Source: Escherichia coli (lineage in GTDB: Bacteria > Pseudomonadota > Gammaproteobacteria > Enterobacterales > Enterobacteriaceae). From it: a stretch of DNA of 5,816 nt. The DNA is taken from NCBI RefSeq assembly GCF_003334785.1, contig NZ_QOWV01000040.1; one strand, 5' to 3'. A program made the translations under genes and the position numbers. Positions 1 through 5,730 of the stretch are shown one piece after another; the stretch's first letter is position 1, and every line of letters starts with the position of its first letter. Below the pieces are notes generated by a model. The model had not been told where the DNA came from and ran no database searches. It was given only the letters and a program-made list of their open reading frames with translations.

Positions 1-607
<607 letters not shown>

Positions 608-619
608 CAGGAGAACAAC

Positions 620-1717
620 ATGCGTGAAATGAATTTCAGTCAACGGCTGAGGCGTTTCATTGTCAGAAAAACGTTCAGCGCCCCCTACAGGGTGCAGTTT
701 TACGAAGCCCTGCGTTTTCTGATGGAAAATAAACAGCCATTAAAGACCGCACTGGAACAGATGCGGGATGCCTGGACAGACTTTGGACGAAAATGGCATC
801 CCTTTGCTGAACTGGCCACAGACTGCATTGAGTCTCTTCGTGAAAACAGTGGCGAAAATTCTCTGGAATATACTCTTAGTTTATGGGTTCCTCAGGAAGA
901 GGCCGCAGTAATCAGCGCCGGGATAAGAAGTGGTTCAATTGTGGATGCACTGCAATTCGCCACCACTCTTACAGATGCAAAAGAACAAATCCATCAGGCT
1001 ATATGGCAAATGGCTATTTATCCGGTGGGATTGTTAATCATGATGACGGGGACATTATATGTTCTGAATACAGAGCTAATACCTGAACTGAGCAAAATAA
1101 GCTCCCCTGATTCATGGAGTGGTGCTCTTGGTTTTCTTTATGGATTATCTGTTTTTGTCGATAAAAACGGCGCTATATGTGTCGTTCTTTTTGCAGTGAT
1201 CACAGATTTAATATCATGGTCTCTGCCAAACTGGAAAAGCCCTGACAGTGTTCGTACTTTTGCCGACAATATAATGCCATGGAGTATTTATCAGGATATA
1301 CAGGGAGCAACATTTCTCCTGAATATGGCTGCACTTCTGAAAGCCAAAATGACGACGCTCAACTCACTAAACATTCTTCAGGAGTTTGCATCACCATGGT
1401 TAAGCACACGTCTTGACAGCATTATTTACCGCGTCCGCCAGGGGGATCATCTTGGACTGGCTTTGCGTCAGTGCGGTTATCAGTTCCCATCCAGGGAAGC
1501 AGCCAACTTCCTGTCTTTATTACAGGGAGATGGCGCAACAGAGCTAATCAGCAATTATGGTCAACGATGGCTTAGTCAAACACTTCAACGTGTAAAGAAA
1601 CGGGCAAACGTGATTCGTTTAATTATACTGATATTTCTTGTCATGTCTCTCATGTTACTGGTTTTTGCCATTATGGATATTCAGTCTATTAGTGACAACA
1701 GCATGGGTAACTTTTAA
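620..1717 (+). CDS. pilR: Polytopic inner-membrane pilus platform protein, GspF/PilC/TcpE-like (PilR-like)
   Basis: ATG at 620 with AGGAG at 609-613 (6 nt spacer). 365 aa with a soluble N-terminal region and three long hydrophobic segments (AIYPVGLLIMMTGTLYVL, ICVVLFAVITDLISW, VIRLIILIFLVMSLMLLVFAIM). It sits directly after the ATPase and before the prepilin, as in R64 pilQ-pilR-pilS. Confidence 0.7.
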   Translation: MREMNFSQRLRRFIVRKTFSAPYRVQFYEALRFLMENKQPLKTALEQMRDAWTDFGRKWHPFAELATDCIESLRENSGENSLEYTLSLWVPQEEAAVISAGIRSGSIVDALQFATTLTDAKEQIHQAIWQMAIYPVGLLIMMTGTLYVLNTELIPELSKISSPDSWSGALGFLYGLSVFVDKNGAICVVLFAVITDLISWSLPNWKSPDSVRTFADNIMPWSIYQDIQGATFLLNMAALLKAKMTTLNSLNILQEFASPWLSTRLDSIIYRVRQGDHLGLALRQCGYQFPSREAANFLSLLQGDGATELISNYGQRWLSQTLQRVKKRANVIRLIILIFLVMSLMLLVFAIMDIQSISDNSMGNF

Positions 1718-1734
1718 ATAAAACGAGGATATTT

Positions 1735-2349
1735 ATGTTAGTAGAAAATATTAATACCACTTTAACTGGAAATAATAAGAAGAATGAACCTCATGATAAA
1801 GGATGGGCAATTTTGGAGCAGGGAACAATAGCGCTCGTTGTTCTTTTTGTTATAGTCGTTGTTCTGGGTAGTTTGTATGCGTTGCGTACAAGAGCCAATG
1901 TGGCAACTGAAACTGCAAATATACAAACAATTATCACAAGTGCCCAGAGCCTGCTAAAAGGTAGCGATGGATATACATTTACCAGCAGTGCCAAAATGAC
2001 AGGTGACCTCATTCAGATGGGTGCCATTCCCTCTGGGATGACCGTACAGGGCGACAAAACATCTGGTACAGCAACGCTCTATAACGCATGGGGCGGTGCT
2101 GTAACTGTTGCCCCGGCTTCAACATCAGGGTTCAACAACGGTTTTACCGTTACCTATGATAAAGTCCCACAGGATGCCTGTATCCAGATTGCCACACGAA
2201 TCAGTAAAACTGATTTGACTAACGGCATTACCCTGAACAGTACTGCTCACAGTGATGGAAAAGTCACTACTGAAGAAGCCAGTACGCAATGCAAGGCAGA
2301 TAATGGCAGCACTGGTACAAACAAACTTATCTTCACCATCAATGGTTAA
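1735..2349 (+). CDS. pilS: Type IVb prepilin, major pilin subunit (PilS-like)
   Basis: GAGGA at 1725-1729, ATG at 1735. Class III signal: a 23-residue hydrophilic leader ending in Gly (…PHDKG), followed by WAILEQGTIALVVLFVIVVVLGSLYAL, giving Trp at +1, Glu at +5 and a hydrophobic alpha1 helix. Two Cys about 36 residues apart near the C-terminus (DACIQ…TQCKAD) match the pilin D-region disulfide. The mature protein would be about 181 aa. Confidence 0.85.
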   Translation: MLVENINTTLTGNNKKNEPHDKGWAILEQGTIALVVLFVIVVVLGSLYALRTRANVATETANIQTIITSAQSLLKGSDGYTFTSSAKMTGDLIQMGAIPSGMTVQGDKTSGTATLYNAWGGAVTVAPASTSGFNNGFTVTYDKVPQDACIQIATRISKTDLTNGITLNSTAHSDGKVTTEEASTQCKADNGSTGTNKLIFTING

Positions 2350-2358
2350 GGAGTTTTA

Positions 2359-2919
2359 ATGTCAGGGAGTACAATACCCCTCAGACTTATTTTGTTAATC
2401 CTGCTTATTTCTCTTATTTCACCCGCCCGAGCTTCATACGTAGCCCCCAAACAGATCTGGACCAACAAGTGGGACAATTGCTTTGCCGCTGCCGGCGCGC
2501 GCTATCAAATTGAACCATTATTATTGAAGGCCATTTCTGCCGGGGAATCTTCGTTGAGGCCGGGCGCAATTAATATAAATAAGGACAAAAAAACAGGTAA
2601 AGCCAGTAGCACGGATTATGGGCTGATGCAAATAAACTCAACCCATATTCCAAAGCTGATAAATATGGGCGTAATAAAAAAGTCTGAGGATTTAATTACC
2701 AAACCATGCCTTAATATCCATATAGGAAGCTGGATACTGGCAAGACATTTTCAGATATGTGGCGTCAGCTGGAATTGCCTTGGGTCATACAATGCCGGAT
2801 TCCGTAAGGACAGACATGAAACAAGAGAGCAATATGCCAATAAAATATGGAGAATTTATCGTGACATGAAAGGGATATGTCTTCCCGGACAGGGAGGCAG
2901 GAAATGCAGACAATCGTAG
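2359..2919 (+). CDS. pilT: Periplasmic lytic transglycosylase, SLT domain (PilT-like in R64 nomenclature; not the retraction ATPase)
   Basis: AGGAG at 2349-2353, ATG at 2359. Sec signal peptide with ARA/S cleavage motif (…LISPARA-SYV). SLT family motifs in order: catalytic-Glu motif GESS, then DYGLMQIN, then SYNAG. Confidence 0.8.
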   Translation: MSGSTIPLRLILLILLISLISPARASYVAPKQIWTNKWDNCFAAAGARYQIEPLLLKAISAGESSLRPGAININKDKKTGKASSTDYGLMQINSTHIPKLINMGVIKKSEDLITKPCLNIHIGSWILARHFQICGVSWNCLGSYNAGFRKDRHETREQYANKIWRIYRDMKGICLPGQGGRKCRQS

Positions 2920-3560
2920 GCATAAGTCTATCCCCTGTTTATATACTGCCATTGATGTTCACATTTTCCATTATTGGACGAACTCTGCTATTCAGAGTTC
3001 GTTATTTTTTATCTGATACGGGACATCTCTGGTATAAGACACACCCTGCTGTTCTGTCAGGAATATGGCTATACAGTATAGCTGTGGCGTTAATTATTTT
3101 ATCATCATCACCACTGCTCTACCGTATTCATGCTGTCCTTATTCTTTCGTTCATACTGCAAATGGCGGTAACGGATGCACTGACAGGTTTATTACCAGGA
3201 ACATTCACCCGGCGTTTTTTAATTGCAGGAATGCTATCACAAATCACGACTAATATATGGTGGTTCCGTACAACAGAATTTGCCACTGCTGCAATTGTCT
3301 TATTCTGCCTTCATAAATTAGTTAACCGCCATCGTCTTAATATTGGCACTGGAGACCTGTGGCTTATTGCAGGTATTACCGCATGGTCAGGGTTATATAA
3401 CGCCATATGGTGTGTGTTGCTGGGCACAGGAGGATTTGTCTTATGGCATTCAACATGGTGCATAAAAGGGCATAAAGAAGGCCCTCTGGGTCCATGGCTA
3501 TGTTTGGGCCATGTCCTTTTGCTGCTGGATAATCTTTATCAACCACTATGGGTAATCTGA
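2904..3560 (+). CDS. pilU: Prepilin peptidase, A24 family, short form without an N-terminal Cys-rich domain (PilU-like)
   Basis: Polytopic membrane protein. Contains [11 protein letters not shown] (a D…LLP motif like the first catalytic Asp of PilD/TcpJ) and [18 protein letters not shown] (a GxGDxxL…G motif like the second catalytic Asp). I prefer ATG 2904 with GGGAGG at 2892-2897 over the ORF-track start at 2877, which has no well-spaced SD. It overlaps the pilT 3' end. Stop TGA at 3558-3560. Confidence 0.72.
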
Positions 3561-4129
3561 TGAAAAAATATGACCGAGGCTGGGCATCGCTGGAAACTGG
3601 CGCGGCTTTATTGATTGTTATGCTCCTGATTGCCTGGGGAGCGGGCATATGGCAGGACTATATTCAAACAAAAGGATGGCAAACTGAAGCACGTCTTGTC
3701 AGCAACTGGACCAGTGCGGCCCGCTCTTATATAGGGAAAAACTACACGACTCTCCAGGGCAGTAGTACCACAACAACTCCTGCCGTTATCACGACAACCA
3801 TGCTGAAAAATACCGGCTTTTTGTCCAGCGGGTTTACTGAGACAAACAGCGAGGGGCAGCGGTTACAGGCATATGTGGTTCGAAACGCCCAAAACCCGGA
3901 ATTACTACAGGCAATGGTTGTATCCAGTGGTGGCACACCTTATCCAGTGAAAGCACTTATCCAGATGGCTAAGGATATTACCACTGGTCTTGGTGGATAT
4001 ATCCAGGACGGCAAAAAAACTCATCAACGGTCGTCAGATAAACCCGACACCACTGCAGGTCCGTTACCCACAAGGGGTAAGAGAAGTTCTGGGGATAATG
4101 AGCGAACAATTAGCCATATCCACCGCTGA
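3560..4129 (+). CDS. pilV: Minor pilin / pilus-tip adhesin N-terminal module (PilV-like), as encoded in the present frame; it may continue into 4016..4772 (see findings).
   Basis: ATG at 3560 overlaps the pilU stop (TGATG); an alternative ATG lies at 3548. Class III signal: short leader MKKYDRG, then [24 protein letters not shown] with Trp +1 and Glu +5. Thr/Ser/Gly-rich pilin-like body. No Cys in this frame. The last 36 codons before TGA 4127-4129 are low-complexity and Arg-rich. Confidence 0.65.
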
Positions 4130-4772
4130 TTTAACCCGAATCCTGCTTGAGGATGCTCTTCATAATATGTTTATGCCTGCGGATAACACCACAGGAAACA
4201 TAATAAGCAGAATTGAATACATCATGCTGTCGCATGATATAAATGCGCCATTACTGGCAACATTGCTGTCGCCATGGAATATCCGCTCCACGGTTATACA
4301 GGACCCGGCCAGACTTGCAGACTATCTTTCAGCTGACGCTCTCGAACATCTTGCTGAATGTTTTAATCTCAATCCGGACTGGCTGAATGGCCATGAAAAC
4401 TATCCGATAGCGTTGTCCGGTGAATGGCCAGATACTGCTGATAATTTCAGAATGCTTATTAATGATAGCAGCAACACTGAAGTTATTTTCTGGCATAGTT
4501 TCCCCTTCGCAGGAAACACGAAAAGAGAATATTGCGGGGTAATATTGAGACAGAAAAAAGAAATAAATGGTTCTGTAATATATCCGGCACTATCATTATC
4601 ACCAACACTTCTGAACGATGAAAAAAGAAAATGGTTAACTGAATATACAACCAGGCAGAATACAACAATGTCTTTGCGACGCGTCACGTTGAGACCTGGC
4701 CTTGCCGGGAACCTTATTACGGGGAAAACACTACCTGTTAGCTTATTTAATACGTCTTTATTACCCTGGTAA
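4098..4772 (+). CDS. Hypothetical protein with no recognisable motif; alternatively the C-terminal domain of a longer PilV if the frames are joined near 4013-4019.
   Basis: Long open frame (ORF track 3990..4772, TTG start; first ATG at 4098). No signal peptide or transmembrane segment. Looks helical and acidic in the first half ([31 protein letters not shown]), with two Cys (AECF, EYCG). The 3' half is AT-rich. There is no well-spaced Shine-Dalgarno for ATG 4098: GGGGA is 2 nt upstream and AAGGGG about 20 nt upstream. Confidence 0.5.
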
Positions 4773-4857: not shown

Positions 4858-5730
4858 ATGATGAAGAAAAATCATATTACCCGCACCATCATTGCATCTG
4901 CTGTATTATTTTCCTTTAACGCTGCAGCAGCGACGTCATATTTTGAAGCACGTAACGATGCAATGGGGGGCACCGGGGTAGCATCTTCCCATTATGGTGT
5001 GGCACCTCTGGCAAACCCAGCTTTACTGACAAAGCACAACAGCAATGATGATTTCAGCCTTCTTCTGCCGTCTGTCGGGGCACAAGTTGCTGATCCTGAT
5101 GATGTATCAAATAAAGCTGATGATGTTAAAGATGACTGGGATTTGTTTGATAGTGCTGTAGATAACCAGCATGGCGTACAACAGGCAGCAGCAAATCTTA
5201 AACATCGTCTGCAGGAATTCCGCAATATCAATGCAGATGCTCAGGTAGGTGTATCAGCTGTAGCAGCCATGGCAAATGACACTCTGCCGTTTGCCCTTAT
5301 GGTCAAGTCTTACGGAACTGTCAGCGTAAACGGAAAAGTAAACGATGCAGACCTGGATTATCTGGACAAAGTTGCCAATGGAACAATTACCGACGTCGAT
5401 AAGAATGCCCTGACCTCACGCGTATTCGGGCGTGCAGCTGTAATTACCGACGTCGGAATTTCATTTGCCAAAGAACTGGAAACGGCCGGACAAAAATGGT
5501 CTCTTGGCGTCACACCAAAATATCAGCGTGTGGACCTGTTTAACTACAACGTAACGGTTCGTGATTACGACAAAGACGATTTTGGCGGTGACAAGTACCA
5601 CAACACGAAAAACGGATTCAACGCCGATATTGGTGCTTATACAGACCTGAATGACAACTGGACTGTCGGTCTTGTTGCCCAGAACATCATTCCACGCAGT
5701 ATTGACACTAAAGTCGTCAATGGCTTGTAA
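4858..5730 (+). CDS. Secreted outer-membrane protein, putative beta-barrel with a FadL/TodX-like or TraF-like N-terminal signature; possibly truncated.
   Basis: AGGA at 4848-4851, ATG at 4858. Sec signal peptide (MMKKNHITRTIIASAVLFSFNAAAA-TSYF). The mature N-terminus YFEARNDAMGGTGVASS…LANPALL follows the x-E-x(5)-G-x-G-x-A…NPA-L pattern seen at the start of FadL-type barrels. Alternating hydrophobic beta-strand-like segments (WTVGLVAQNII). It ends …VNGL with no terminal aromatic residue. Confidence 0.55.
   Translation: MMKKNHITRTIIASAVLFSFNAAAATSYFEARNDAMGGTGVASSHYGVAPLANPALLTKHNSNDDFSLLLPSVGAQVADPDDVSNKADDVKDDWDLFDSAVDNQHGVQQAAANLKHRLQEFRNINADAQVGVSAVAAMANDTLPFALMVKSYGTVSVNGKVNDADLDYLDKVANGTITDVDKNALTSRVFGRAAVITDVGISFAKELETAGQKWSLGVTPKYQRVDLFNYNVTVRDYDKDDFGGDKYHNTKNGFNADIGAYTDLNDNWTVGLVAQNIIPRSIDTKVVNGL

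Follow-up and report, generated by a model that had tools for sequence, protein, structure and literature searches.

The PilV adhesin of IncI1 plasmids has long been studied, and its recipient specificity resides in the shufflon-encoded C-terminus and not in the N-terminal loop. The C-terminus of PilV is swapped by DNA inversion, and no such swap is known to take place in the type IVb minor pilins TcpB or CofB. Full-length PilV resembled TcpB of V. cholerae (7w63) and CofB of ETEC (4qs4) in carrying extra C-terminal beta-rich domains behind the pilin domain. However, the sequence identity of PilV to these two proteins and to the major pilins CofA (9iuf) and TcpA (8uhf) was only 5-11%. The stretch of DNA analysed here (5,816 nucleotides from Escherichia coli, referred to as the window) contained a Thr-rich stretch that was identical, residue for residue, to that in PilV of R64 and ColIb-P9, the shufflon-controlled tip adhesin of the thin pilus. 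However, the window copy of the protein ended after codon 152 when compared with R64 PilV. The Thr-rich stretch was best explained, with a probability of about 0.8, as the ordered start of the alpha-beta loop in the type IVb pilin domain of PilV, in which the Thr residues are structural or space-filling and which is almost certainly without function in the truncated window copy. The following features of the locus were identified:

74-607: pilQ remnant, the 3' third of the assembly ATPase gene, cut by IS100; RefSeq pseudogene without the N-terminus
3560-4015, plus strand: pilV remnant of 152 native codons (blastn and translation against R64); RefSeq pseudogene without the C-terminus
3560-3580, plus strand: putative prepilin leader MKKYDRG, read from the sequence, with G/W cleavage followed by WASLE and a Glu at mature position 5
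3758-3799, plus strand: Thr-rich stretch (by translation), PilV precursor residues 67-80, corresponding to mature residues 60-73 after the putative G7/W8 cleavage
4013-4019, plus strand: deletion junction GGCAAAAAAACTC; R64-like pilV sequence extends as far as 4016, traE-internal sequence runs from 4015
4016-4129, plus strand: last 37 codons of the fused ORF, reading through traE DNA in the wrong frame, with the stop at 4129
4858-5727: traF remnant, 290 of about 400 codons; RefSeq pseudogene without the C-terminus

The whole window was an exact substring of NZ_AP022179.1 (plasmid pWP7-S17-ESBL-04_2), which originated from E. coli of a Tokyo water reclamation plant and was typed in PLSDB as IncFIA, mobilizable and not conjugative. 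Positions 77-4016 matched the region for the thin pilus (pil) in R64, an IncI1 plasmid, with 99.1% DNA identity in blastn, and the gene order pilR-pilS-pilT-pilU-pilV was the same in the window and in R64. The genes pilI-pilP and most of pilQ were absent from the locus, indicating that the thin pilus cannot be assembled. Three incomplete pseudogenes (pilV, pilQ and traF) were annotated in RefSeq. What the window holds is the decayed remains of an IncI1 transfer region, bounded by IS elements and located in an IncFIA plasmid, from which no thin pilus can be made. Positions 1-76 of the window had no match in R64 and adjoined the istA gene of IS100 in NZ_AP022179.1; at the other end, the cut traF was followed in the same record by an ISCro1 (IS66-family) element.

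Approximately 3,973 bp were missing from the window when compared with R64 (locus L002, 5470-9442); with them went pilV codons 153-474, all of the shufflon, rci and codons 1-22 of traE. pilV had lost its C-terminal two-thirds: the other 209 residues of the constant region were gone, as were the C-terminal adhesin segments that the shufflon encodes and the sfx sites. In the AlphaFold2 model, the pilin domain itself was also affected by truncation at residue 152, losing strands 153-181 and helix 183-199. This truncation was absent from the preliminary description of the sequence. The join fell within short A-runs on both parental sides (GGCAAAA / GGCGAAAAA), and a search of 72,556 plasmids and 5,426 complete E. 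coli genomes gave the junction in a single record. A deletion mediated by Rci at sfx sites was considered and rejected: the shufflon of R64 begins only after codon 361, a long way downstream of the breakpoint at codon 152, and the join falls in A-runs distant from any shufflon recombination site. A complete constant region, alternative shufflon C-termini and a downstream rci, which mark members of the PilV family, were not found in the window; the window copy is a remnant of a PilV family member and not a functional one. Because pilV was cut after codon 152 with loss of the adhesin domain, the shufflon and rci, and because pilQ and traF were truncated by IS elements, the Thr-rich stretch is almost certainly functionless in this copy. 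The RefSeq CDS of TraE (3975-4772) was found to begin with an ATT start inside pilV-derived DNA, in a different frame. The first 14 or so residues of that CDS were a chimeric artefact of the deletion, replacing 22 native N-terminal residues.

The first 152 PilV residues of the window were all identical to R64 PilV (152/152), and the window protein matched Pfam Shufflon_N (PF04917) with an E-value of 6.1e-58 and a score of 197, although only over profile positions 1-122 of 324. These two results bore out the assignment of the region to a PilV pilin module in the preliminary description. A prepilin leader and an adjoining prepilin peptidase gene, which likewise mark the PilV family, were both present. 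A class III signal motif is an established feature of type IV prepilins; judging from this motif, the precursor is probably cleaved between G7 and W8. The stop codon of the prepilin peptidase gene pilU (TGA, 3558-3560) overlapped the annotated start codon of pilV (ATG, 3560-3562) within TGATG (3558-3562), a layout typical of translationally coupled genes. A further ATG in the pilV frame was present at 3548; ORF calling from it added four residues (MGNL) to PilV, and the longer form occurs in some database entries. No family scored above the cut-off when the window protein and full-length R64 PilV were scanned against NCBIfam, the sole match (below threshold) being to a prepilin-peptidase-dependent protein on the N-terminal helix.

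Codon G67 began at 3758 and T80 ended at 3799, whereas 3800 was the first base of the next codon (ATG, M81). A Thr-rich stretch had been placed at 3758-3800; the stretch itself was recovered, its end being set one nucleotide too far. Seven Thr and two Ser were counted among its 14 residues (67-80). In 20,000 protein shuffles, at least seven Thr within 14 residues occurred with p = 0.019, both for full-length R64 PilV and for the 152 native residues, and a run of four Thr had p = 0.02-0.03 in protein shuffles. The clustering of Thr is real and only modestly unusual.

The AlphaFold2 model of full-length R64 PilV, computed from a 78-sequence alignment, had a mean pLDDT of 85, with block means of 96-98 over residues 61-100. 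DSSP assigned helix 8-60, helix 62-68, loop 69-74, strand 75-77 and helix 79-84 in this model. The same elements were obtained in an independent AlphaFold2 model of PilV residues 1-200 (37 sequences; mean pLDDT 93.8, pTM 0.85). On the plus strand of the window, the predicted elements were positioned as follows:

3581-3763, plus strand: N-terminal pilin helix alpha1 (8-60) and its continuation (62-68), with G67 and S68 as the last residues (DSSP, pLDDT 91-98)
3764-3781, plus strand: loop S69-T70-T71-T72-T73-P74 (models and alignment)
3782-3790, plus strand: short beta strand A75-V76-I77 (models and alignment)
3791-3814, plus strand: T78, then short helix 79-85 (TTMLKNT), with the helix end at N84/T85 (models and alignment)

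The order in both models, helices 8-60 and 62-68 and then the stretch, agreed with its earlier placement shortly after the N-terminal helix. The elements of a type IVb pilin fold were all found, namely a long N-terminal helix, an alpha-beta loop, an antiparallel sheet and structural similarity to solved type IVb pilins. A search of PDB sequences with the window protein returned no solved homologue and only chance matches to influenza PB2 (E ~0.07). The PilV fold therefore rests on prediction, as the sequence search found no experimental structure of a shufflon PilV in PDB; the literature search likewise yielded no paper on the structure of the R64 thin pilus. From the models, the alpha-beta loop of the type IVb pilin domain is predicted to open with this stretch, within the N-terminal constant region of PilV.

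In the proposed arrangement, G67-S68 would end the long N-terminal helix. S69-P74 would form a short loop where nearly any small residue is acceptable within the family and for which IncI1 plasmids happen to use Thr, and A75-I77 would make a short strand. T78, standing directly before the short helix (T79 to N84/T85), would cap that helix, which in turn would pack back onto the pilin core through I77, M81 and L82. I77 and L82 are predicted to be buried and T70-T73 to be exposed to solvent. On this view the Thr residues belong to an ordered loop and are regarded as structural or space-filling; they are taken neither for a linker nor for a slippage tract, nor for a site of demonstrated glycosylation.

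A word-indexed search for homologues gave 15 matches, mostly fragments and frameshifted copies, and an exhaustive search was needed to capture the diversity of the family. With a single protein standing for each 50%-identity cluster, the exhaustive profile-free search returned 1,523 proteins (E <= 1e-3), and R64 PilV was aligned with the N-terminal parts of 84 cluster representatives (n = 85). The family consensus was A-A-x-x-Y-I-x-D-N-Y-a-x-L-l-a-s-A-t-a-T-t-P-a-x-I-T-x-a-m-L-k-x-t-G-Y-L-P-x-G-F. Columns 67-73 (GSSTTTT in R64) were occupied by small residues (A/S/T/G) in 62-92% of cases, and identity to R64 over these residues was 21%, compared with a domain mean of 29%. Of the 85 aligned sequences, 12-27% had gaps at loop columns 70-73. 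L65 and I77 were separated by the R64 spacing in 51 of the 85; across the alignment this spacing varied between 4 and 12 residues. Residues 74-82 had 43% identity to R64, compared with the same 29% mean. P74 was kept in 59 of the 76 sequences with a residue there, position 77 was I or V in 74 of 85, position 78 was T or S in 68 of 85, and L82 was kept in 78 of 85. Segment 74-82 was above average and not among the most conserved, ranking 51 of 185 nine-residue segments. The entropy of the stretch as a whole (2.33 bits) equalled the domain mean.

Closer relatives were more uniform in length. The length of the stretch was fixed in the sampled IncI1 and IncI-gamma/K plasmids and in relatives with 58-59% identity, and each of the 33 tblastn rows sampled with full coverage, the lowest at 58% identity, spanned exactly 435 nt. 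The natural variants were the substitutions G67A and T72S, found in IncI-gamma/K plasmids. PilV of a P. aeruginosa plasmid, only 33% identical overall, retained the peptide across the stretch. In a C. freundii homologue, 13 residues of the stretch region were unchanged despite synonymous codon changes, indicating selection on the protein. Length variation among homologues, a comparison proposed in the preliminary description, was observed in the loop half (67-73) of distant relatives and was absent among the sampled IncI-complex plasmids. An invariant stretch lying within a folded core, which had been named there as evidence against its reading, was largely what we found for the second half only, this half being conserved and part of the fold.

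These data bear on two other views of the stretch. A flexible Ser/Thr linker between the N-terminal helix and the globular head, as had been suggested, would be in keeping with the low-complexity composition and with the indels in the loop half of distant homologues. However, the pLDDT of 96-98, the strand and the helix within the stretch, the constant length in the sampled IncI1 and IncI-gamma/K plasmids and 58-59%-identity relatives, and the conservation of P74, I77, T78 and L82 all argue against it, as does an entropy at the domain mean and not above it. With a defined secondary structure, a fixed length and conservation at the domain average (above it in the second half), a linker is extremely unlikely, and the suggestion was not upheld. 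The Thr richness might also be a compositional accident, neutral and without a specific role in IncI1 plasmids, the loop needing small residues only. A, S, T and G are broadly accepted at columns 67-73; homologues read ATSSTTT, SATSTTA, ASATATT or AAAGPTT there or are without the loop altogether, and the shuffle p was only about 0.02. However, Thr was the commonest residue at three loop columns (70, 72 and 73) across the whole family, and the second half of the stretch was clearly constrained. As an explanation in its own right, such an accident is unlikely; for residues 67-73 it agrees with the ordered start of the alpha-beta loop and is for the most part covered by it. The frequency of Thr at columns 70, 72 and 73 hints at some preference going further than small size, which the ordered-loop reading leaves unexplained.

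The preliminary description had further proposed that the repeated ACN codons could promote slippage. Such a contingency locus, with the codon tract giving rise to length variants, would draw on the seven ACN codons within 42 nt. However, Tandem Repeats Finder returned 0 arrays at a minimum score of 30. The Thr codons were mixed (ACC ACA ACA ACT ... ACG ACA ACC), and the longest triplet repeats were AGTAGT and ACAACAAC, with a maximum of 8 nt. The variants actually seen, G67A and T72S, were substitutions. Two synthetic alleles only, with one ACA codon either removed or added, were compared by megablast with approximately 1,328 plasmid copies. Neither allele had a full-length match above 98.2% among these copies, the same figure as for the wild type with a 3-nt gap, while the wild-type query matched 774 records with at least 99% identity. 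Seven records were at least 99% identical to the synthetic alleles; these were taken as partial matches, the number being the same as that of the records covering less than 80% of the query. With no tandem repeat, mixed codons and neither one-ACA length allele among the roughly 1,328 copies, the probability of slippage is virtually nil.

The last suggested role was O-glycosylation, for which the alpha-beta loops of glycosylated type IVa pilins, P. aeruginosa group IV PilA with TfpW and Neisseria PilE with PglL/PglO, serve as precedents. PilV is likewise hydroxyl-rich at mature residues 61-66. However, it is a type IVb minor pilin with no cognate transferase gene annotated, and the likeness is positional only. 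According to bioRxiv 10.1101/2020.04.19.049825, the P. aeruginosa group IV pilin carries D-arabinofuranose on Thr64/Thr66. TfpW is encoded directly downstream of pilA. Enzymes of the PglL/PglO type use serines in Ala/Pro-rich low-complexity regions as acceptors (PMC9239064). Thr/Ser 68-73 (mature 61-66) of PilV could be O-glycosylated in the periplasm in the manner of Thr64/Thr66 or of the serines targeted by PglL/PglO. The loop is hydroxyl-rich and lies at the start of the alpha-beta loop in the models; its mature positions 61-66 are close to the Thr64/Thr66 given in the bioRxiv report, and the consensus A-S-A-T-A-T-T-P-A resembles the Ala/Pro-rich low-complexity acceptor regions (PMC9239064).

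Several observations stood against this reading. Glycosylation of the TfpW type requires a transferase gene adjoining the pilin gene, and no glycosyltransferase, oligosaccharyltransferase or O-antigen-ligase-like gene was annotated in the record region of the window or in the R64 pilI-pilV operon. No general O-oligosaccharyltransferase is known from E. coli K-12 or Salmonella, in which R64 pili work. A full-text literature search found no report of PilV glycosylation, glycosylation being mentioned together with PilV and the shufflon only in what is, by its title, a survey of mcr-1 plasmids; a term search of the literature on TP114 PilV found nothing on protein glycosylation or on the stretch region. 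PglL-type enzymes target serine (PMC9239064), whereas the loop is mostly Thr, and the protein is truncated in the window anyway. O-glycosylation of the stretch was unsupported, and an acceptor loop at these residues is very unlikely. By analogy with the glycosylated pilins, the Thr cluster at mature residues 63-66 of intact PilV might form an O-glycan or hydroxyl-linked site on the IncI tip adhesin, modified by a host-encoded enzyme, with the A/S/T-rich loop ending in Pro as the acceptor motif; we consider this highly improbable. If glycosylation were true for intact PilV (not the window copy), it would add an extra layer of modification to the conjugative-pilus adhesins that spread resistance plasmids.

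The stretch is ordinary and already known, being located within the curated Shufflon_N domain of a pilV pseudogene already flagged in RefSeq. It matters little and should not be pursued further as a possible linker, phase-variable tract or site of glycosylation; the useful outcomes are the negative ones.

A promoter scan of positions 3400-4300 gave no promoter-like site. Five terminator-like matches were counted in the same interval, compared with 0.7 expected, all of them weak and all inside coding sequence. The terminator-like hairpins on the minus strand at 3797-3780 and 3829-3812 were rejected; they were weak and inside coding sequence, and their T-rich tails were the complement of ACN/AAA codons. 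An ORF on the minus strand at 3742-3936 (64 aa, GTG start), without supporting evidence, was rejected as spurious. When the model of full-length PilV (R64 locus L002, 5013-6434), whose C-terminal part is absent from the window, was searched with Foldseek, matches were obtained to the receptor-binding tip of the phage lambda central tail-fibre protein gpJ (E = 4e-4) and to the carbohydrate-binding modules CBM35/36 (E ~1e-2), with low TM-scores for both gpJ and CBM35/36. These model-based matches would fit an LPS-binding beta-sandwich adhesin head for the PilV C-terminus.
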